Assembly (NCBI GenBank): GCA_951804945.1 | Contig: OX638151.1 | Span: 46,314,001-46,378,000, forward strand | Length of the DNA stretch: 64,000 bases | DNA from: Podarcis cretensis | Taxonomy: Eukaryota | Direction: 5' to 3' | In this document: positions 2,958 through 53,153 of the stretch, one piece after another | How positions within the stretch are numbered: position 1 is the first letter of the stretch | Layout: every line of letters begins with the position of its first letter | Notes under the pieces: model-generated | Seen by the model: the letters and a program-made list of their open reading frames with translations, nothing else | Database searches by the model: none | What the model was told of the DNA's origin: nothing | Made by a program: the position numbers and the translations under genes

Positions 2958-4831
2958 ACTTGTTCAGCTCTCAGACCACATTGTGGAAAAATACAGCCCT
3001 CATTTCCTCACTAGTACTTCCACTGCAATTCCAAATGATGGACTGACTGCTTTTGACAACATCTCTACCAGTACCTTGTGCCCGTACCCAGCAATATATT
3101 GTTCTCTTCCATGTTCCTATCATTTTGACATGTACAGTTGTACCTCGGTTTAAGAACAGTCCTGTTTAAAAATGATTTGGTTTACGAACTCTAAGAAAAG
3201 ATAGATAAAATTTCATTCTGTGTGATGTACTGCCAAAAAACAAATATAAAATAAGGAATTATTGTGAGAATAACCACATTATAAAAAGAAGCAAAATATT
3301 TAAAACCTATAAAATCTATGACCTCAATCCTAGACAGTTAAATGGCAGAAGCTTCCAAACAGTGAAAAAAATTATACTATATATGGCATGGAACTCACAA
3401 TATAAACATTATTAATTAAGTGCAAGACTGCCTTAGCAGAATGTGGCTACTTGATTTGATGGATGCTTATCTTAAACACAGTTATGATTACTAGCCCATG
3501 AGGGAAAGGATACTTGAAAACAAGTCTTACAAAACAAGGATACTTGAAAATAAGTGTTTTGTGCCTTCAGCTGGCTCATAAGAACAGCTGGTCAAAAAAA
3601 TATCCTATACGTATAACTTTGCTGCAATATTTTGAGGCGCTTTTTGTATTCTAAGCTCATGCATTCAAAAAACATGCTTGTTAAAATCTGTCACATTTTA
3701 CAGTCCCAATGATCTCTGTACAGTATTTCCTTTTCAGCTCTCCATAAGTTACAAAGCTATCTTAGAACAAAGATATGAAGAAATTTGAAAAGAAATGAGT
3801 TTGTCTGTTATAACAGCATTTATAAATTTGTGTTTTTCAAGGTTATAGCAAAACAGTAGTGTCAGAAATATCACAGTGGGGGAACTGGCCAATCAGAAAG
3901 GCACCAAGCATTGACAACTTTCCATTCTCAGGTATATGCAGAAAAAAGGGTCATAGGCTGATTGTTATGGATATTGTATGCAAGTTCCCATTTACAGCAA
4001 GTAACTGCAATAAAACACAACAGCGGTGTCATCAGCTGAACTTCCTATACCTAGTATGCTCCAGATGTTTCCAACTGCAACTCCCAACAGTCCCAGCTAG
4101 AATGGCTAATGGTCAGAGATGATGGGAATTATGATCCAAAACATACAGAGGTCACCAGCTTGGACTAGATACCCCCCGAGCCCCAGCCTAAGACTGTAAC
4201 CCAGTTTTAAATCCCTTCATAAAACAACTGTAATTTACTAAATCCTTCACCAACAAAGAAAGATGATTCAGCTGAAACTTTATGCTTTGTGTAGTCAGAA
4301 CTTCATCCTTCATGTGTTTATTGTTCGAGATATTTATCGGGCAGTACAGATGCTATCTTATAGTAAAATGCAAGTTCATACTATTTTTAAACATAGCAAT
4401 GAACTATAAACATGGTCCTAAAACAATTTCCAAAAGTCAGTAATTGCCCCACATTGTTTTATACAAAGAGTAAGGAAAGAGAAGAAGCCCACTTCTTCTA
4501 TAAAACTCACTTTACACAACAACAACAACCCTACATTGTTCAAGGGTGAAACAATTATGAAACCTGTTCCTGCATCCCACTGTTTCACCACTCAAGCTTG
4601 CACACTCTTAAGTTAACTCTCAGTAGAAAGAAAAAGCTGAGGGAAAGATGCACAAAATTCTGTGTTAGACTAGATTTGGACCTTAGAGATTCAACTTCCA
4701 TGTCCTATCATCATCAGTGCACAGTCTACACCAGAGCATTATCTGAACAGAAACATCTCTGATACAACACAGAAAGAGTAACCATATGCTAAACCACTAG
4801 TGATATATTTTGCCCTAATCATTTGACAGTA

Positions 4832-5196
4832 AAAGGTAAAGGTAAAGGTACCCCTGCCCGTACGGGCCAGTCTTGACAGACTCTGGGGTTGTGCGCCCAT
4901 CTCACTTAAGAGGCCAGGGGCCAGCGCTGTCCGGAGACACTTCCGGGTCACGTGGCCAGCGTGACATCGCTGCTCTGGCGAGCCAGAGCCGCACACGGAA
5001 ACGCCGTTTACCTTCCCGCTGGTAAGCGGTCCCTATTTATCTACTTGCACCCGGAGGTGCTTTCGAACTGCTAGGTTGGCAGGCGCTGGGACCGAGCAGC
5101 GGGAGCGCACCCCGCCGCAGGGATTCGAACCGCCGACCTTTCGATCGGCAAGTCCTAGGCGCTGAGGCTTTAACCCACAGCGCCACCTGCGTCCAC
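4832..5196 (-). mobile_element. Sauria SINE (Squam1), full length, young
   Basis: tRNA-like head with GTTCGAATC B box, BovB-related 3' end with (ACCTTT)n tail, 12-bp TSD CATTTGACAGTA. Confidence 0.92.
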
Positions 5197-6135
5197 CATT
5201 TGACAGTAGCGGCTCCAAATACAGCAGTGTTACTGATGTAAAACAGCCTTCTCCTACTCAATGACCTCCCAAGCTGCACCGGCTAGCATGGTCTGGGATG
5301 AAGGGAGCTGAAGTCCCACAAAGGCACCATGCTGGGAAAAGCTTTTGTAAAAAGTGAAACATGAAAAACAAATAATGAACCAATAGTGAAACATGTAGCC
5401 CCTTATTGTAAATCTACCAAGTAACAATAATTCAATAACCTTGCCAGGTCTGGCAGCTATTGTTCCAGCTCATGCACTTTGAGATCAACATAGTGGATGT
5501 GTGTCTTTTCTTCTTCTGCAAGACTAGCAATAGCAGGTGTAAGCTGACTACTTACTTCATGGAAAGTACAGCTGAAATGTGTTCATAACCGAAATGTACT
5601 ATGTGAATGCATTCTAGCAGGCACGGAATTTATCACCATAGAGATAATGCATGACTTCCCTATTGAAAGAGAGTTATTGGTTATTTCCATGTCCAAATAT
5701 GAAAGTTATCATTTCTGATTATATTCTTCTCTTGGGCAACATGCTAAAGGCAGCAACTCGCTAAATCAATAGTGACCTAAACAACTGGTATTAATGACCA
5801 TTTTGATATCTGATGTATCTTTTGTCTAATGACATGAACTGATTTAACATGGAACTGCAGTGTTTAAGTTAATGATATTATGTAATATGTTCTGCTTCTA
5901 TTTTCTTTGGGGAGAGCAACTCATTAAAATCTGTCTTAATAAATCCTATTGTAATTTAGTGTAAGTGGAGCACATTTGCTTAAAAGATAACTCTATTTTG
6001 TCAACAAAAGTGTGTGTTTGATATTCTCAGAGCAGAAAAGAGAACACCCTCTGGTTTTCTCTGGCAAAATTCCCAGAATCTGTACACTAAAATGGAAAAC
6101 CCCAATACCACTAATAGTTAAGTAAAGCAACTTAC

Positions 6136-10648: not shown

Positions 10649-11152
10649 TGTCATGAATATGCCAGCTCCGAGTGTAATTTTACAGCCGGCTGGAGAATGC
10701 AGTCAGGAACAGAGAGACTTGGCTTATACTCTGGCAAAGGAGAGCCCACAGCTGCCAGCGTCGACTCCCCCTGTTCTTGGATGGCCGGCTGCTAAGGGAG
10801 TAACTGAGAGCAGGCTAGAACAGAGCCAAAGCTCTCCAGAAGCCCAAACAGGCGCGAAAAGCCACAGAGACAGCCTTTTTCAACAGGAAGGGGATGTAGT
10901 TGACCCAATAAGCCCGAGGCGTAGGCAAATAGGACGGCTGCTAGACAGGAAGCAAAATAAAAGACGTAAGGGTCGAAAGTTCAATATCTTCTGTCATCAC
11001 AGGAAGGAGTCTTCAGAAGGGTCAATTTGAGAGATTATGCCGGCGGCTTGGCTAGAGCCATCCAGAGTTAATTGTTTGTTTTTGCAATAAATCCCCCTTT
11101 TTAATTACGTACGCTTACTGTGTTATCAAGCCGCGAACCTGGACTCCTGACA
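10649..11152 (+). mobile_element. Solo LTR (504 bp) with an internal ORF, nested in a hAT non-autonomous element
   Basis: TGTCA...TGACA termini, 5-bp TSD CCTAC/CCTAT, AATAAA at about 11085, open frame 10650-11030. Confidence 0.8.
10650..11030 (+). CDS. LTR-embedded ORF (126 aa), Ser/Glu/Pro-rich then Arg/Lys-rich
   Basis: VMNMPAPS...DPISPRRRQIGRLLDRKQNKRRKGRKFNIFCHHRKESSEGSI*. Same register relative to the LTR start as the other two LTR ORFs. Confidence 0.4.
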   Translation, partial: VMNMPAPSVILQPAGECSQEQRDLAYTLAKESPQLPASTPPVLGWPAAKGVTESRLEQSQSSPEAQTGAKSHRDSLFQQEGDVVDPISPRRRQIGRLLDRKQNKRRKGRKFNIFCHHRKESSEGSI

Positions 11153-14009: not shown

Positions 14010-14388
14010 AAGGGACGCAGGTGGCGCTGTGGGTTAAAGCCTCAGTGCCTAGGGCTTGCCGATCGAAAGGTCGGCGGTTCGAATCCCTGCGGCGGGGTGC
14101 GCTCCCGCTGCTCAGTCCCAGCGCCTGCCAACCTAGCAGTTCGAAAGCACCTCCGGGTGCAAGTAGATAAATAGGGACCGCTTACCAGCGGGAAGGTAAA
14201 CGGCGTTTCCGTGTGCGGCTCTGGCTCTGGCTCTGGCTCTGGCCAGAGCAGCGATGTCACGCTGGCCACGTGACCCGGAAGTGTCTCCGGACAGCGCTGG
14301 CCCCTGGCCTCTTAAGTGAGATGGGCGCACAACCCCAGAGTCTGTCAAGACTGGCCCGTACAGGCAGGGGTACCTTTACCTTTACCTT
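14010..14388 (+). mobile_element. Sauria SINE, full length, young
   Basis: GGGACGCAGGTGGCGCTGTGG head, (TCTGGC)4 internal repeat, (ACCTTT)n tail, TSD TAATCTTTCACT. Confidence 0.92.
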
Positions 14389-17048
14389 TAATCTTTCACT
14401 GTTCTGTGAGGAGAACAATTCTTAACACATATATGCAAGAAATTGGTTCTTTAAATATCCTGGTGCACAGACCTTTAGTGCTTTATTGGTAATTATCAAC
14501 ATGTTGAATTGGGCAGTTGGGCTCAGAAATGGAGCCATTAACAATTACATAATACTGCTGTTATATATGTGTCTGCAGTATTTGGTACCAGCTGAAATTT
14601 CTGACCACAGATCTGCCTTTTCCAGGAAACAGTTTGGGCAAGGGCCTAAGCAAAGCATAAGTGTTCATGGCCACAGCCACTATCTAGTAAAACAGGAACA
14701 GAGCCAGGTCCAGAAACACTCAAGCTGCAAACTAACCCTTCAAAAGGAGTACAATCTACCCACAATATGCTGTACACTTGCCCCTAGATCAGCTTTTCAA
14801 TCAGTCCAAAGCATTCTCTCTCATCTAGGTTAAGCCTCAGTTAATTGAACAGCAATAGACTGAAAATAACACAGTTTAGGTTACAACTAATTTTACTCTT
14901 TACTTCCCACCTAAGGTATGTATCAAGCAATTAAAGCTAATATATGCCAAGTCTCATAAATATGTGATCAGCAACTTAAATATATGCCAACATCTGCCCC
15001 TTGTCAATGCTGAAAGTCAAGCTAACACAGACTGAATCCTAAATCGAGAACACCTTAAAGATTTCTACTGCAAGTGTTATTTGCATCTCAATGAGAGCTC
15101 TCAAAACATTTCTCTCATTTCCAAGGCTCTGAGACATCCTGCCTCTCTACATAGAGTACTCAGCAGTTCAGTTATTCCAACCCAGCAGTCACTTGGAACA
15201 GACAAGGTTAGGCAGTGTTAAGCTCTGTGACCCCTCCAGTTAAGGGCTCCCGCTGTTGAGTTGTCACCTCCCTTGTTTAAGTTGTAAAATTCACACTTTT
15301 TGAAACTTGTCTGCCACATGACAGATTAAGTGAACTTCCGGGGGACAACCATAGATGGCTCATGCCTTGTTTTCTCCAAGATTGGTTAAAAATATGCAGA
15401 ACTCAATAAAAATAAAAAGAGAAGTGTGAACAGGCATGGGAAGGAGGTTAAGATGGTTCACCTGGTGAGATCAGTGTATTAAACTATAATAGGGAGAGAT
15501 TATATGTTGGCAGAGCCCACAAAGGTACAAATATTTTTCTGTAATTTGGATTTCTGGGGGATAGGGCAGTATAGCTTCAATTTCAAATAGTTTTCCTGCA
15601 TATGAATACAGAAAGAGCCGGGTTAGGTATAAATGAAAAACAAACCCCAAAATTTAAATGCCAGAAACTAAACACAAGTAATTAAATTCTAATAGGATGA
15701 AATCAGTAACTGCATTTAAAATGTTAATTTATGTATTAGAGTCAAGAAAAGTGGAGGGTAAAGTAAAAGCATATTGATTACATAATCAAACTAATAAGTC
15801 AACAACTTGGTTCTCAGCCGATTTTACAAATTAATATAAGCACCTGAATAGTATTTATACGTAGGAGATGAGTAGATTGTAAATGTGTGATCACACAAAT
15901 ACTTGTCCCATATATTAAGTCAGATTTGTCTTACTTCCACAACAATTCATAGTGGTGGAATTTTAAAGTAACATGATACCATCATTTGCAACAGCCGTAG
16001 TTTCCAATCTCCACGCTGCCATGCCGGGGGAGGGAGGAGGTTTGTGCAAGTAAAATTTAACTATGTTTTAATGTTATATACCAAACAAGCAATTATCCTG
16101 TTTTTTGTTTTGCTGAACAAATATTTGTTTCGTGTTACTTCTCAACCCAGCCAATAGTGAGCGGATACAAAGCAAGGCAGTCTAGGGCTAGACAGGGCCA
16201 GACCATGCATGAGGCAAAATGAGACAACTGTTTTGGGTGTCAGGATCCACAAGGGCAGCAGATCTGAGCTCCAGGAATGCATTGTACACTGCTACTGCCT
16301 CAGGGGCAGCAACGGATGCAACAGACTCCTTGGAGGCCAGATCTGCTGCCTCCTTGGCAGTCCCCCTTCCAGTCCTGCTTCAATAGTGGCCTCTCAATGA
16401 ATAGGAGGTGCTGCTGGTCTCCTCCCACCCCTGTGGAGGAAATGGCAGGGACTGCCTTGGGGGGGGGGGTCTTCCAGGCTCTGCACCCACCCAGCATGAT
16501 TCAGAGTGGGTGCCTTCCTCCCCACAACCCATGACAGCCTTTGATCTCTACTTCTACAGTCTGGGTAGGTTGACTGGATTCCCCGCTTTGTTGCCAATAC
16601 TGATCTTCGCTCACCCCTTTTATTTCTGATGTTGATATTATTTTCCTCTCTCCTTGTTCCTGGTGCAGATGTTCATTTACCCCTTTTTCCCTGGCCGATG
16701 GCTCATTTTGTGGTTTGCCTCAGGTGCCAAAATGTCTTGGGCTGGCCCAGCTTCCAATTGTTACTGGGCTACAACTCCAATCATTCCTAAGCCATGCACC
16801 AGAAATTATAGTTGATAAGTGGGAGTAAAGTGTGCCTATTGTAGTTGTAGCTGTGATCTTGAAAATAGCTTTGCCATGGTCCTCCTGACACACTGGTCAG
16901 TGCATCTCTGCACTAGCAGTACTCTGCTCTGTTGTACTTGGGTGATAGGAAAAAGCATTACCAGGACTCCTGACTTCTTCGTTTAGCTATTATGCATTAT
17001 TTCTGCTAATATTACTACTACTTTGCTCCTTTCCTGAAGCAAACAAAG

Positions 17049-21483: not shown

Positions 21484-22390
21484 AAAACCACTGGCTGCAC
21501 AGGTGGTGTCATCAGGAATGATTTGGCTTCTTGGATCATGATCTCTGCTTCCTTGAGGTAGGACTTCTGCGAGAGATGGGCTGCACCTCACAGCATTTGG
21601 CAAGAATGTGTTTGTCAAGAGTCTTGAGAATCTTTAAACTAGATCTTGAGTGGGAGGGATAAAACAATATGAATGACAAAAGAGCAGCTGGCACTGGGGA
21701 TAATAGCGTCACTGATGCACTGAAAACTGAGGTGGTGCTCCAGAAACCTGCTAAAGGGCAAAAACTACAGGGAGGAAGGAAGCAGTTGCAGGGAACAACT
21801 CGTAGTTTCAGTTGTCTCTACACAAATGCACAGAGTATGGGAAACAAACAAGATGAACTGGAGCTTTTAACATAGGATGGCAAATACGACCTGGCAGGCA
21901 TTACTGAAATCTGGTGGGATGAGACTCATGACTGGAGTGAAGGAATTGAGAGGCACAACCTGTTCAAAAGGAATAGACCAAACAGAAAGGGAGGAGTAGC
22001 ATTGTATATAAAGGATGTGTACACTTGTGAAGAAATCCATGGCCTGGAGCATGAAAAGCAGATTGAAAGTATATGGGTAAAAACTGTAGGAGAGAGAAAG
22101 AATAGTGACCTTACTGTGGGTGTCTGCTACAGACTGCCAAGACAGACTGAAGACTTGGATAATGCCTTACTAGAGCAGATTAGCAAACATTCAAAAAGGA
22201 GAGAAATAGTAATCATGTGGGACTTCAACTTCCCCAAGAGTGCAAGGTCTGAAAAATTCCTCCATTGCATCGCTGACAATTTAAACAGAGGTTGGATGGC
22301 CATCTGCCATGGATGCTTTAGCTGAGATTCCGGCATTAAAGGGGTTGGACTAGATGACCCTTGAGGTCCCTTCCAACTCGATTCTATGAT
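21484..22390 (+). mobile_element. Internally deleted CR1 LINE (ORF1 esterase end, endonuclease N-terminus, then 3' end)
   Basis: FGFLDH and RDGLHLT (CR1 ORF1); CLYTNAQSMGNKQDELE, ESIWVK, GVCYR and DFNFP (APE endonuclease); jumps at about 22280 to the CR1 3' UTR ending TTCCAACTCGATTCTATGAT. Confidence 0.88.
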
Positions 22391-29909: not shown

Positions 29910-31145
29910 GTATGATTACCTCTGTCAGGAGAGAGACAGGGGAAATGTCTCCTTGTTAATAATTCTCATCAACCTCTCAGTGGCTTTTGATAACATCAAC
30001 CATAGTATCCTTCTGGAGAGACTGTATGAGTTAGGGCTGGGTGGCACACCTTTGTGGTCATTTCAGAGGGAGAGTACTCTTCAGCTCCATGGAACCTTCC
30101 ATTGTGGGGCTCCTTGTTTAACATGTACATAAAGCTACTGAGTGGGGTAATCTAAAGATTTGGAGTACATTGTCAACAATATGCCAATGACACACAGCTC
30201 TGCTTCTCCTTTACATCTATGGGGATGGCAGGGGATGAGCTGGACCATTGTCTCAACAATGCACTGGATAAGAGTCAACAAACTGAAGTTAAATCCAGAT
30301 AAGACAGAGGCATTGTTAGTGGGTGGTTCCCTAGACCTGATGGATGGAAGGTTGCCTGCTCATGATGGCATTACACTCCATCTGAAGGACTGGTCACATA
30401 GTTTTGGGGTACTGCTTGATTCTTTGCTGCCGCTTGAGGCCCAGGTGCCCTCAGTGGTGCAGAATGCTTTCCATCAGCTTTGGCTGGTGGTCTACCTGCA
30501 CCCCTGTCTGAAAATGGATAGCCTATTGTCTATGCTCTGATAACCTCTGGGTTAGATTACTGCAACACATACATAGGGCTGCCTCTGAAGATCATTTGGG
30601 AACTTCAGCTGCTGCAGAATTTGGCAGCCAAGTTGCTCACCAGGGAAAGATGGTTTGAGCCTATTACACTGATCCTGGCCCAACTGCACAGGTTGTAAAT
30701 TAGTTTCTGGGCCCAATTCTAAGTGCTGACTTTAACCTCTACAGCTCAGAACTGCAATACCTCAAGGACCACTCCATATGAACTGACTGGGACCCTGTGA
30801 TCATCATCTAAGGCCCTTCTTTGTTTGCCTCCTTCACGAGAGGTCCAGAGGGTGGAAACACAAGAACAGGCCTTTCTGGAGCTGGGCTCCCCATTTGTGG
30901 AATGCGCTCCCCAAAGAGGCTAGCCTGGCGCCTTTATTACATATCTTTAGGCACCAGGCAAAAATGTTTCTCTTTAACTAGGCATTTGGCTGATTAAAAT
31001 TTTATGGATTTTAAAATGTGTTTGTAGAAGGGGATTTTTTTGGTTTGTGTTGCTGTTGTTCTTATTCTCATTTTGTATTTTTCTGTTGTGAATTACCCGG
31101 GATCTTCGAAAGGGCAGTATGCAAATTTAATAAAAATAAATAAAT
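29910..31145 (+). mobile_element. Degenerate L2 LINE, 3' portion
   Basis: Remnant motifs (AFDNINH, NKLKLNPDKTEALLV, LDYCN) and a typical L2 3' end with an AATAAA-rich tail. Confidence 0.85.
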
Positions 31146-32459: not shown

Positions 32460-33299
32460 TGTTAGGGGACTGCCATCGGAACAGGGGAGGGAGGCAAAGG
32501 GAATGCAGAGAGCCTCCGAGGCTTCTGAGGAGCAGCTCCTTGTCCGGCAGTGGGGAAAGCCACACCTCCAGTGGAATAGAGAGGGAAGGGGCCAGGCAAG
32601 TGAGGAGAGGGCTCAAAGATGCTGCGGAGAGCCCAAGCACCTCACATAGCCCAGCTGGCCAGGAGGCAAACATGCAACTTCCGTTGCCCAGCTTGTGCAA
32701 AGGGGTTAAACGCAAGGAGGGGAGGCAGAGATTTGGGGTGTCTAAGTTCTTATGTTGGAGGAGAAGCCAGAAGGCGCCACTCCAAGTGACTAAGACGGAC
32801 ATGAACTTTGTGTTTCTGCACTGTAAATAGGTAAAGGTAAAGGTACCCCTGCCCGTACGGGCCAGTCTTGACAGACTCTGGGGTTGTGCGCCCATCTCAC
32901 TTAAGAGGCCAGGGGCCAGCGCTGTCCGGAGACACTTCCGGGTCACGTGGCCAGCGTGACATCGCTGCTCTGGCCAGAGCCAGAGCCAGAGCCAGAGCCG
33001 CACACGGAAACGCCGTTTACCTTCCCGCTGGTAAGCGGTCCCTATTTATCTACTTGCACCCGGAGGTGCTTTTGAACTGCTAGGTTGGCAGGCACTGGGA
33101 CCGAGCAGCGGGAGCGCACCCCGCCGCAGGGATTCGAACCGCCGACCTTTCGATCGGCAAGCCCTAGGCGCTGAGGCTTTAACCCACAGTGCCACCTGCG
33201 TCCCCCTGCACTGTAAATAGTTTGCACCAATAAAACCTGTAAAAGACAGGTCAGAGTCCTGCCTGGTTACTCACGAGCAACCACCACAAACATCTGACA
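32460..33299 (+). mobile_element. Solo LTR (about 450 bp excluding the SINE), interrupted by a Sauria SINE
   Basis: TGTTAG...CTGACA termini, TSD GGACC/GCACC (alternative start at 32426 with GCACTC/GCACCC), AATAAA at about 33229. Both ends resemble the LTR at 45999 (ACTGCCATCGGA; CACGAGCAACC). Confidence 0.75.
32831..33205 (-). mobile_element. Sauria SINE inserted in a solo LTR
   Basis: Near-identical to the 14010 copy; 15-bp TSD CTGCACTGTAAATAG. Confidence 0.92.
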
Positions 33300-40061: not shown

Positions 40062-42070
40062 TTATTATTTGTACCCCGCCCATCTGGCTGGGTTTCCCCA
40101 GCCACTCTGGGCGGCTTCCAACAAAGATGAAAAATACACTAAAATGTCACATATTAAAAACTTCCCTGAACAGGGCTGCCTTCAGATGTCTTCTGAATGT
40201 CAGGTAGTTGTTTATCGCTTTGACATCTGATGGGAGGGCGTTCCACAGGGCGGGCGCCACTACCGAGAAGGCCCTCTGCCTGGTTCCCTGTAACTTGGCC
40301 TCTCGCAGTGAGGGAACTGCCAGAAGGCCCTCGGTGCTGGACCTCAGTGTCCGGGCAGAACAATGGGGGAGGAGACGCTCCTTCAAATATACTGGACCGA
40401 GGCCATTTAGGGCTTTAAAGGTCAGCACCAACACTTTGAATTGTGCTCGGAAACGTACTGGGAGCCAATGTAGGTCTTTCAAGACTGGTGTTATATGGTC
40501 TCGGCGGCCGCTTCCAGTCACCAGTCTAGCTGCCGCGTTCTGGATTAGTTGTAGTTTCCGGGTCACCTTCAAAGGTAGCCCCACGTAGAGCGCATTGCAG
40601 TAGTCCAAGAGGGAGATAACCAGAGCATGCACCACTCTGGCGAGACAGTACGCAGGCAGATAGGGTCTCAGCCTACGTACCAGATGGAGCTGGTAAACAG
40701 CTGCCCTGGATGCAGATTTGACCTGTGCCTCCATGGACAGCTGTGAGTCCAAAATGACTCCCAGGCTGCGCACCTGGTCCTTCAGGGGCACAGTTACCCC
40801 ATTCAGGACAAGGGAGTCCTCCACACCTGCCCGCCTCCTGTCTCCCAAAAACAGTACTTCTGTCTTGTCAGGATTCAACCTCAATCTGTTAGCCGCCATC
40901 CATCCTCCAACCGCCTCCAGACACTCACACAGGACCTTCACCGCCTTCACTGGTTCTGATTTAAAAGAGAGGTAGAGCTGGGTATCATCCGCATACTGAT
41001 GAACACCCAGCCCAAACCTCCTGATGATCTCTCCCAGCGGCTGCATGTAAATGTTGAAAAGCATGGGGGAGAGGACAGAACCCTGAGGCACCCCACAAGT
41101 GAGAGCCCAGGGGTCTGAACACTCATCCCCCCCACCACTTTCTGAACACGGCCCAGGAGGAAGGAGCGGAACCACTGTATGACAGTGCCCCCAGCTCCCA
41201 GCCCCTCAAGACGGTCTAGAAGGGTGTTATGGTCGATGGTATCAAACACCGCTGAGAGATCCAGCAGAACTAGGAAACAGCTCTCACCTTTGTCCCTAGC
41301 CCGCCGGAGATCATCAACCAGTGCGACCAAGGCAGTTTCAGTCCCATGAATCCCGACTGGAAGGGATCCAAATGGTCCGCTTCTTCCAGGCGTGCCTGGA
41401 GTTGTTCAGCAACCACTCGCTCAATCACCTTGCCCAAGAATGGAAGGTTTGAGACTGGGCGATAGTTGGCCATCGTGGCCGCATCTAAAGATGTTTTTTT
41501 AAGAAGCGGTTTAATAACCACCTCTTTCAGCGGGTCTGGGAAGGCTCCCTCACGGAGGGAAGCATTCACCACCCCACGAAGCCCATCGCCCAGCCCTTCC
41601 CGGCTAGCTTTTATAAGCCAGGATGGGCAAGGATCCAGGAGACAGGTGGTTGGCTTCACTCGTCCAAGCAGCCTGTCCACATCCTCGGAGGTAACAGATT
41701 GGAATTGATCCCACACAACTTGACTAGACAGGACTCTAGCACTCTCCCACCCTGGCCCTGCTCCCACGGTGGAGTCTACCTCTTCCCGAATCTGAGCGAT
41801 TTTATCTGCAAAAAACTTTGCGAAATCATTGCAGGAGATCATGTGGCCCGTACTGGGCCCCGATGTCGCAGGTGGTTCCGCTAAATTGTGAACCACCTGA
41901 AAAAGTCTCCTGCTGCTGTTTTCTGCAGATGCAATAGAGGCGGTAAAGAAAGTCTTCTTCACTGTCGCTATCGCCACATGGTAGGCTCAATGTTGAGCTC
42001 TAACCTGTGTCCGGTCAGATTCGGAATGAGTTATCCGCCACCAGCGCTCTAGCCGTCTCAACGATTGTTG
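40022..42070 (-). mobile_element. L2 LINE, 5'-truncated, relatively young; reverse transcriptase in three frames
   Basis: Minus-strand ORFs 41270-41977, 40947-41330 and 40147-41175 contain NYRPVSNLPFLGK, LLDLSAVFDTIDH, GVPQGSVLSP, YADDTQLY and LHWLPVRFR. (TTA)n tail; possible TSD AGGTAA. Confidence 0.95.
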
Positions 42071-45336: not shown

Positions 45337-45998
45337 GTGTTTTTAATGTGTGTGTAGATTCCGGATCCAGAATTGGCCTCCACAGTCACTTACAGACTCA
45401 TTGTTAAAACCGTGTTTATGGAAAACAATCTTACGCAGCTATGAGTGATCGCCAAGGAAGAAGAAGATATTCCAAAATGTGGCCTCTGGTAATATCTGGT
45501 ATAACAAAATTTGAAGTTGTCATATAAAATTGGCCTGTTGTGCATGTAATGCTTATTGTTCTAGCTGAAGCCAAAGGCCATGACAAACCACCCTAAATCC
45601 AAAATTAGCTGAAAATGAACATGTGAGCATGTGGATACTCAAATGAAAAATTGCAGCCACTTTGCTCCTCCCTAAGTTCTCCTGCTGTCATAGTACCCAG
45701 AGCTAAGGCATGGTTTCACTTGGCATTCACTTACATCCAAACCTACTCTTCTTGCTTGTTTCTCTCCAGCCAAACCATGAGCTGTAGACATCATTTATTA
45801 TTGACTCACCATTCGTGGTTTGTCTGGGGGACAAACTTTCTACCGACTGTCACCTACCAATTTTTTTATAATTTTAATAAAAGGACATTATTTGCAAATC
45901 ACCCTTCGGGTGGGGGGGGGGGAGAAAACTACTTACAAATCGTAACTGAAATTGGAATAAAAATACAAACACAGGAAAGAGACAGAAATCAAAACGAC

Positions 45999-46434
45999 TG
46001 TCAGGGAACTGCCATCGGAGCCAGAGGCGGAGGGAAGGCTCCAGAACGATGCCGGAGAGGGTCCCAGCAGGGAGAGAGGCAGCCCATCTGCTGGGGAAGG
46101 AAATCAGCGTAACACCAGAGGAGAAGGGGGGCAGATGGGGGAATCGGAGAAAAGGCTCCAGGACTCTTCACCGGAGACCACTGGGGAGAGCACGGGTACT
46201 CCGCTGCCCGCACCCTCCCTGCGCAGAAGACTTCCGCACAGGGAGAGTAGGAGGAGACTTGGCGTCAAAGAACTTCTTTGCTGGAAGAAGTTTAAGAAAT
46301 GCCCACTGACGGATTCTGCCAGCGACTGAGACAGCCACGAGTGCAAGGCTGTCCAGAGAGAAAGGGCTCAACCAGGCAACCTAGCCAGGAGTGGCGGCAA
46401 CTTACGCACGAGCAACCCCCTTAGAACCATTACA
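45999..46434 (+). mobile_element. Solo LTR (436 bp) with an internal ORF
   Basis: TGTCA...TTACA termini, perfect 5-bp TSD ACGAC (45994-45998 and 46435-46439), frame open 46000-46329. Confidence 0.85.
46000..46329 (+). CDS. LTR-embedded ORF (109 aa, open from the LTR edge), small acidic-then-basic protein
   Basis: VRELPSEPEAEG...LPAPSLRRRLPHRESRRRLGVKELLCWKKFKKCPLTDSASD*. Protein-level similarity to the frame at 32678-32782. Confidence 0.5.
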   Translation, partial: VRELPSEPEAEGRLQNDAGEGPSRERGSPSAGEGNQRNTRGEGGQMGESEKRLQDSSPETTGESTGTPLPAPSLRRRLPHRESRRRLGVKELLCWKKFKKCPLTDSASD

Positions 46435-46770
46435 ACGACCAAATATTTAAATACAAGGATGTATTAAGTGAAATACTTGGGATTAGTTTGCATTAACAAA
46501 GTGCCATATCAGATCTGAGGACATACACGTAAGCTTTATCTAGCAGGGAAGTAAATATTTAATGTGAGAGGCCAAAGTGAGACAGATAGCAGTGGGTTAG
46601 AGGACTGGACTGCCCCACTCCAGTACTAGTAAGCAAAAATGCTTGCAGTGACAGAACAGTCATATGAGCACCACATAAAATTCCACCCTGTATCCCAAAG
46701 TCTAGCCTTTCCTTACAGGAAACACAATCCAACATCTTAGTCATTCTTTTTCATCTTTCCCAGGTATACA

Positions 46771-52322: not shown

Positions 52323-53153
52323 AAACAAAAAAATTCCTTCCAGTAGCACCTTAAAGACCAACTAAGTCAGTTCTTGGTATGAGCTTTCGTGTGCATGCAC
52401 ACTTCTTCAGATACACTGAAACAGAAGTTTCCAGACCCTTCTATATAGTGAGAAGGTGGGGAGGGGTATTACTCAGAAGGGTGGTGGGAATGGGTGATTG
52501 GCAGATAGCTGTGATGAGCCTGTTGACGACTCTTAACGACTGCAATAGGTCTTACAGGAAAAAGCAAGGGGTGAAAAGGTGAAAAATGGCTTTGTCATGT
52601 ATAATGAGATAAGAATCCAAGGTCTTTGTTCAGACCAGGTCTCTCCATGGTTTTAAGTTTGGTGATAAGTTGCAATTCAGCAGCTTCTCTTTCCAGTCTA
52701 TTTCTGAAATTCCTTTGTAGTAAAACAGCTACTTTGAGATCTTGTATAGAATGTCCTGGGAGATTGAAGTGTTCTCCTACTTGTTTCTCTGTCTTGTGAT
52801 TCCTGATGTCCGATTTATGTCCGTTTATTCTTTGGCGTAAGGTCTGGCATGTTTGTCCAATATAGAGAGCTGAAGGACACTGTTGGCATTTGATGGCATA
52901 CACAATGTTAGACGATGAGCAATTAAATAGTCCCGAGATGGTATGTGTGATGTTGTTGGGGCCAGTAATGGTGTTGTCTGGGTGTATGTGGCATTATATT
53001 AGAATAATAGTATTATAATAATACTACAACCAGACCTAACACGGGCACTGGCACCAGAGCCTGCAATAAACCCAGATGCCAACTTTGCTGCCACATACAC
53101 CCGGACAACACCATTACTGGCCCCAACAACATCACACATACCATCTCGGGACT
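52323..53153 (-). mobile_element. Penelope-like retroelement fragment (GIY-YIG endonuclease end plus 3' pseudo-LTR) with an inverted 5' piece
   Basis: VYAIKCQQCPSALYIGQT...LRQRINGH...EHFNLPGHS...GLN. The Cys-rich linker CNKPRCQLC suggests the Neptune clade. Confidence 0.9.
52377..52414 (-). ncRNA. Minimal type I hammerhead ribozyme motif in the Penelope element
   Basis: Minus strand: GUAU-CUGAAGA-A-GUGUGCAUGCACAC-GAAA-GC-UC-AUAC, i.e. stem I, CUGANGA core, palindromic stem II, GAAA, very short stem III, UH cleavage site. Confidence 0.8.

Follow-up and report, generated by a model that had tools for sequence, protein, structure and literature searches.

Solo LTRs in the window

The window, by which we mean the whole 64,000-nucleotide stretch of Podarcis cretensis DNA that was analysed (contig OX638151.1), contains solo LTRs of three types, referred to here as subfamily A, subfamily B and family C (Table 1). 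The subfamily A copy has the termini TGTCA and TTACA and is bounded by a perfect 5-bp duplication, in agreement with the preliminary description of this sequence, which had called it a solo LTR. Related copies are numerous: a first look at the genome yielded 3792 candidates, among which the 40 scored were 96%–100% identical, and a perfect target-site duplication (TSD) was present in 27 of 30 fetched copies. The frame noted in the earlier description is indeed open from base 2 of the LTR (position 46000) and comprises 109 codons up to a TGA at 46327–46329; it reaches the same stop in 28 of the 30 fetched copies, the window copy included. When the 109-aa frame was searched against Pfam, no family matched. 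The hexamers AATAAA and ATTAAA are absent from the subfamily A LTR; subfamily B has AATAAA at 33229.

Table 1. Positions of the LTRs and of the features within them, counted from the first nucleotide of the window.
Feature	Position	Strand	Remarks
Solo LTR, subfamily A	45999..46434	+	436 bp, TGTCAGG...CATTACA; TSD on both sides; Tf1/sushi-type Gypsy chromovirus (putative, by features and matches)
5' TSD ACGAC	45994..45998	+	Second copy at 46435–46439
Open frame, 109 codons plus stop	46000..46329	+	Very probably the C-terminus of Pol/integrase, encoded within the LTR; full-length copies have it in one uninterrupted frame with integrase and chromodomain
Conserved U3 block	46201..46284	+	Pro-rich, then Arg-rich, then hydrophobic-K-x-L-L-C-W; omega 0.16, alignment
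Self-primer ACTGACGGATT	46305..46315	+	Putative U3/R boundary; overlaps the P-L-T-D codons; the PBS that follows 5' LTRs is its reverse complement
U5 segment	46405..46415	+	Complement of the stretch immediately 3' of the PBS; candidate second Tf1 'pretzel' duplex, from sequence reading (10.1101/2022.12.06.519325)
Older solo LTR, subfamily B	32460..33299	+	Flanks GGACC/GCACC; homologous block 32678–32782; young repeat inside at ~32826–33207
Third solo LTR, family C	10649..11152	+	Frame uninterrupted between base 2 and 11030; basic block and F-N-I-F-C at 10914–11030

Subfamily B comprises 390 genome candidates, and its other scored copies are 80%–87% identical. The window copy carries a frameshift between the N-terminus and the block; many further copies have stops or frameshifts, and in several, nothing interrupts the frame between base 2 and a PL[PE][DE]SASD stop. 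For family C, 600 genome candidates were obtained: at least four of the five TSD positions match in 21 of 30 copies, the block is present in 27 of 30, and the frame is open to at least 115 aa in 7 of 30. No parent element of family C was found, the polypurine tract (PPT) pattern search of the genome being empty.

Other repeats and features were observed alongside these LTRs. A young repeat of ~380 bp (98%–99% identical copies), which we take to be Sauria-SINE-like, sits in the subfamily B LTR at 32826–33207 and also occurs at 4831–5197 and 14012–14389; a similar insert occupies the same LTR site at two other loci (L032 and L054), a possible sign that the site is a preferred target. Fragments of non-LTR retroelement frames lie at 40147–41986 (−), 21876–22325 (+), 30151–30540 (+) and 52595–52993 (−), presumably RT-, endonuclease- and GIY-YIG-like as judged by eye, and the segment 60000–62000 is GC-rich (~60%), CpG-island-like and probably a gene promoter.

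The comparison that had drawn attention to the subfamily A frame is reproducible. Between 46204–46308 and 32678–32782, 16 of 35 residues are identical and 10 of these 16 are specified by different codons, exactly as claimed; nucleotide identity is 58 of 105, distributed over the three codon positions as 18, 23 and 17 of 35, and the remaining five frames have 9–13 identities. In 20,000 runs that redistributed these substitutions randomly over like bases, at least 16 identities arose with P = 0.004 and at least 10 synonymous codons with P = 0.008. In the alignment, the basic block varies less in its hydrophobic L-C-W core than elsewhere.

Full-length elements and their pol frames

That the frame is open as early as base 2 suggested that it comes in from beyond the LTR, and LTR starts were therefore sought behind a PPT. 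The pattern search led to a locus (L066) at which an integrase frame measuring 503 aa or more reads directly into base 2 of the LTR. There were 38 matches to GGA followed by the beginning of the window LTR; the element's PPT is present at 23 of the 30 loci fetched from them, and at seven PPT-linked loci of the window LTR type the integrase tail is in frame. Full-length elements of ~5.5 kb, organized as LTR-gag-pol-LTR, reside in the same genome. Two of them (L210 and L209) have unbroken pol frames of 1351 and 1333 aa, which end within the 3' LTR at the terminal motif of the window frame, and their LTRs are 99%–100% identical; in a further copy (L249), a 902-aa frame running from RT to the LTR ends in an LTR 91% identical to that of the window. 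The subfamily A LTR is 84%–91% identical to the LTRs of elements with gag and pol. No stop separates the integrase from the basic block in the full-length elements, and the pol tails of full-length relatives terminate at the same ...PLxDSxSD motif, 100–110 codons into the LTR. All 14 open elements keep the frame, with 100, 102, 108, 109 or 110 codons supplied by the LTR, corresponding to five U3 lengths. An intact parent of the exact 97%–98% subfamily was not found among these loci, the nearest PPT-linked LTR (96%) retaining a short internal stub only. For subfamily B, the chromodomain and B-type LTR residues share one frame in a broken copy (L208); a search with the PBS pattern gave 29 matches versus 15 in the control, of which only two consist of a B-type LTR followed by internal sequence, both broken.

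Taken together, these observations indicate, with a probability of about 0.9, that a lizard Ty3/Gypsy chromovirus reads its pol gene through the PPT into the 3' LTR, that the LTR frame represents the last 100–110 codons of this gene and that solo LTRs keep this tail, likely unexpressed. The preliminary description had proposed a separate small accessory gene while itself listing the end of pol or env of a known element among the accounts of the block that would refute it, and it is the end of pol that the full-length elements display: the frame is the uninterrupted C-terminus of pol, with no conserved start. The recovery and classification of full-length elements, which had been recommended there as a check, yielded a Gypsy chromovirus in which the frame continues from the internal region.

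The Pfam families recognized in the elements are Retrotrans_gag, CCHC (zf-CCHC in gag, 22.9 bits against a cut-off of 20.8), aspartyl protease, RT, RNase H, Integrase_H2C2, rve, SH3_Tf2-1 and Chromo. The chromodomain lies C-terminal to the integrase (PF00385, E-values of 1.4e-9 and 1.4e-10; HP1 was also matched), the closest solved relative of the element is Ty3 Gag-Pol (E = 1.7e-54), and the nearest named database matches are Gypsy/Tf2-type proteins. In both elements checked, pol is in the −1 frame relative to gag. No env was found between pol and the 3' LTR, pol entering the LTR directly in the ~5.5-kb elements; the analogy with complex retroviruses drawn earlier consequently does not extend to this Gypsy chromovirus without env. 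By its features and matches rather than by an RT/IN tree, the element is provisionally filed as a Ty3/Gypsy chromovirus of the Tf1/sushi type. Many SH3_Tf2-1 matches in the genome fall in open frames of ~1350 aa, which indicates a recently active sister family. Nested or rearranged elements were also encountered (L249:1-1868 and L072), with one family beside or inside another and half an LTR fused to integrase sequence.

Proteins that cross the PPT/LTR junction in frame are also present in databases: three are from Podarcis (P0004, P0005 and P0009) and one, recognized by motif and with a tail of ~17 residues, is from Labeo (P0011); an ENA protein with 45% identity ends in ...LLCWKRR... across the same junction. 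A profile of the block, compared with 1.84 billion representatives, gave seven hits, four of which are family members (P0001, P0141, P0143 and P0145); P0141, P0143 and P0145 retain the Arg-rich/KLLCW block, and distant relatives keep LLCW-like ends. The other three hits look like repeat-driven noise. Against the PDB, neither the tail sequence nor profiles built from the FxGF region and from the basic block gave a match, apart from a single hit at chance level (E = 0.52), and a search of the ESM Atlas with the 259-aa tail gave only chromodomain leads under 0.9.

Gene models are affected as well. The UniRef entry A0A670JKR6 (P0002), a phospholipid-transporting P4-ATPase of Podarcis muralis, ends in the terminal ~45 residues of the LTR, which likely reflects a gene-model artefact or exonization of an intronic solo LTR. 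The NCBI model of a vomeronasal type-2 receptor 26-like protein of the same species (P0007) contains Gypsy integrase and RNase H domains and is probably another gene model fused with the lizard chromovirus. The lesson for annotation is that pol tails encoded by LTRs can enter gene models.

Self-priming and selection on the pol tail

Downstream of the 5' LTRs, GC is followed by an 11-mer, the PBS, which is the reverse complement of a segment of the LTR. Primer and PBS pair at no fewer than 10 of 11 positions in 32 of 36 PBS loci, perfectly in 18 of them, and their middle bases co-vary, six types and one B type being distinguishable; the primer:PBS helix is part of the minimum-energy fold in three of four leaders and not in the fourth. 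In the Tf1/sushi group, the mRNA's 5' end pairs with the PBS in self-priming (10.1101/2022.12.06.519325, citing Butler et al. 2001). From the self-primer at 46305–46315 we infer that transcription of the LTR starts at ~46305. The last pol codons overlap an 11-nt self-primer co-varying with the PBS, which would place the basic block upstream of the start of the LTR promoter, so that a solo LTR's own promoter likely cannot express the block. Contigs from four presumed-RNA runs cover the LTR and internal parts and are uninformative on start, strand and expression.

Selection was estimated on a codon alignment of 14 natural open copies out of 18 distinct places (GY+F3X4), which had been chosen for an open frame and the terminal motif; L070, L075/L164, L181, L202 and duplicate rows were excluded. 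Omega in the 14 copies amounts to 0.07 in the IN core, 0.14 in the SH3 domain, 0.13 in the chromodomain and 0.20 in the FxGF region, and to 0.65, indistinguishable from 1, in the linker preceding the PPT. Within the LTR, it is 0.53 in the N-terminal part of U3, 0.16 in the 28 codons of the basic block (LRT p = 4e-18) and 0.26 in the last 14 codons. Removing the two columns fixed by the filter leaves the value for the block at 0.163, the selection of copies by open frame remaining. Synonymous sites of the block have diverged to the same degree (pS 0.60) as those of the IN core (0.64), which argues against a conserved DNA motif. Among unfiltered solo copies, the comparison of A with B gives pN/pS of 0.44 in the coding frame, the lowest of the six (0.57–1.55 in the others, 0.57 in the antisense frame that shares third positions); as ratios within families, calculated with no transition/transversion correction, are likewise ~0.45–0.48, this is the weaker test. 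Purifying selection at the protein level, as previously proposed, is thus upheld by the omega of the block and by the six-frame comparison. During the activity of the elements, purification of the Arg-rich/LLCW block was as strong as that of the chromodomain, and divergence at its synonymous sites was as free as in the IN core. We conclude that selection worked on active elements, of which solo copies just inherit the trace: it is only through the overlap of pol with U3 that solo LTRs, in their thousands, contain a basic ORF that looks purified.

These results bear on two alternatives to a pol tail. One is a separate accessory protein resembling nef or sag, made from a start of its own, through a spliced RNA or by cleavage of Pol by the element's protease. 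In its favour, the frame fills U3, is purified and is retained in 28 of 30 solo copies, the subfamily A frame has an in-frame ATG, its sole one, at 46135, which would yield 64 aa, and release from Pol by the protease is compatible with the sequence. However, the integrase and the block are not separated by a stop, the equivalent ATG is present only in subfamily A and absent from the related families of the L209/L210 type, the block is located 5' of the inferred start site, and the young solo copies (97%–98% alike) are open simply by youth, the frame decaying in the older B and C; we consider such a protein very unlikely. The other alternative, conservation of the block as DNA or RNA, i.e. as promoter or priming signals of which the amino-acid pattern would be a by-product, could draw on the position of the block directly upstream of the inferred start and on the last 14 codons, which overlap the self-primer, have a lower pS (0.41) and change their residues with the primer sequence. 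For the block itself it is largely refuted by the combination of an IN core-like pS over its 28 codons with the low omega, and by second codon positions being the best kept between families (0.73 versus 0.49 and 0.44), which leaves this explanation barely credible.

The integrase extension and known systems

In the element, gag precedes a −1-shifted pol (PR-RT-RNaseH-IN-SH3-chromodomain), and this an extension, first acidic and then basic, of ~230 residues counted from the chromodomain on. The extension runs across the PPT, occupies U3 and terminates ~25 nt beyond the putative start site; about half of its ~230 residues are encoded by U3.

The part of the extension between the chromodomain and the PPT, which lies outside the window, contains two tandem motifs, each composed of an aromatic helix, an acidic Ser/Thr linker and FxGF (L210:5377-5604, with equivalents in other full-length copies). 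They fit the definition of the TIM, in which a helix and an acidic linker of 8–16 residues precede FxGF and which is found in all known LEDGF/HRP2 partners (PMC9987994; 10.1101/624023). Of 21 rows, 20 contain at least one match to a TIM pattern and 13 contain two, the pattern having been written after the sequences were seen; with the pattern set in this way, two matches occurred in 0 of 10,000 shuffles. Omega is 0.10 and 0.16 in the FxGF motifs versus 0.32 in the spacer between them. The genome encodes LEDGF- and HRP2-like IBD exons, one set of which we take to be HRP2-like. A complex prediction for the lizard LEDGF IBD (P0052, residues 363–449) and the segment with both FxGF motifs, run without alignments or controls, scored 0.08 and speaks neither for nor against binding. 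From sequence patterns, it is possible, although we hold it only tentatively, that the two FxGF motifs tether the integration complex to LEDGF/HRP2-type readers. More speculative is the broader proposal that the multi-motif tail might mimic the host's partners in transcription elongation, the FxGF TIMs docking on LEDGF/HRP2, which read H3K36me, and the Arg-rich/Trp motif of U3 adding nuclear import or a second host contact. Lentiviral integrase binds LEDGF via folded domains. Should the proposal be correct, a retrotransposon would have reached the tethering factor of HIV through short-motif mimicry, independently of lentiviruses; should the FxGF motifs bind, the element would provide a vertebrate case of convergent integration targeting, which may explain its insertion sites. 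The motifs of MLL1, JPO2, IWS1 and JIL-1 share with those of the lizard a hydrophobic helix, an acidic Ser/Thr linker of 8–9 residues and FxGF, arranged twice in tandem (PMC9987994), but known TIMs reside in host proteins, whereas the lizard motifs belong to a retrotransposon integrase and are candidates by pattern.

As for the basic block, we lean slightly towards a nuclear-import or host-binding motif of the integrase, by analogy with the C-terminus of Ty1 integrase. The 'nuclear or RNA-binding regulator' of the preliminary description persists only as a putative role of the integrase tail, not as a separate small protein. A classical bipartite NLS consists of two basic residues, a spacer of 10–12 residues and at least three basic residues among five; the pattern occurs in 30 of 30 A copies and, among the 21 B copies whose block is unbroken, in 7, and is missing from P0141, P0143 and P0145. 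The block might instead serve particle assembly, either as an amphipathic helix that is possibly S-acylated or as an arm of the Pol tail that binds RNA, in keeping with its invariant part being hydrophobic (L, C and W) with basic residues at the flanks, with the loss of the second basic cluster in B-like families and with a near-invariant Cys beside basic residues, which resembles acylation sites. This we regard as rather unlikely, since the block occupies the C-terminus of integrase, where Ty1 has an NLS and targeting residues (PMC7459421) and CRM elements have a putative LTR-encoded targeting domain (PMC3059260). In Ty1, the residues that bind AC40 are located in the NLS linker, and basic clusters likewise surround a conserved hydrophobic linker at the integrase C-terminus (PMC7459421). 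By contrast, Ty1 is of the Copia type and its motif is not encoded by the LTR, and the second basic cluster of the lizard block is not universal.

Among known elements, those of the Tf1/sushi group (sushi-ichi, Tf1 and the fish 'Tf2' polyproteins) share with the lizard element the domain order, the chromodomain after IN, a CCHC gag and the −1 offset between gag and pol, as well as an 11-nt self-priming PBS, a 5-bp TSD and LTR ends that fit the Sushi motifs TGTYANR/CNTNACA (PMC3601003). The lizard IN extension is much longer, ~230 aa from the start of the chromodomain, of which 100–110 lie in the LTR; the tail of the Labeo relative apparently extends only ~17 residues into the LTR and has neither the two FxGF motifs nor the LLCW block. 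HIV nef and MMTV sag are separate U3-overlapping genes of env-bearing retroviruses; coding sequence overlaps U3 in these viruses as in the lizard element, but the lizard frame is the end of pol and the element has no env.

Pol overlapping the 3' LTR is already known. No description of the present variant, with its long multi-motif tail, was found in the open literature searched, nor one of FxGF/TIM motifs in a retrotransposon integrase or of the lizard family itself. As in the lizard element, pol extends into the 3' LTR in the plant CRM group A (and in beet Bingo1-4/7), where the LTR-encoded CR motif is a putative targeting domain (PMC3059260, PMC3605345). CRM elements, however, prime on tRNA-Met, the CR motif substituting for a chromodomain, whereas the lizard element self-primes and keeps its chromodomain upstream of the PPT. 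The remaining interest of the frame lies in the integrase extension, which combines a conserved motif encoded by the LTR, whose position corresponds to that of the CRM targeting domain, with two motifs of the LEDGF/HRP2 pattern.
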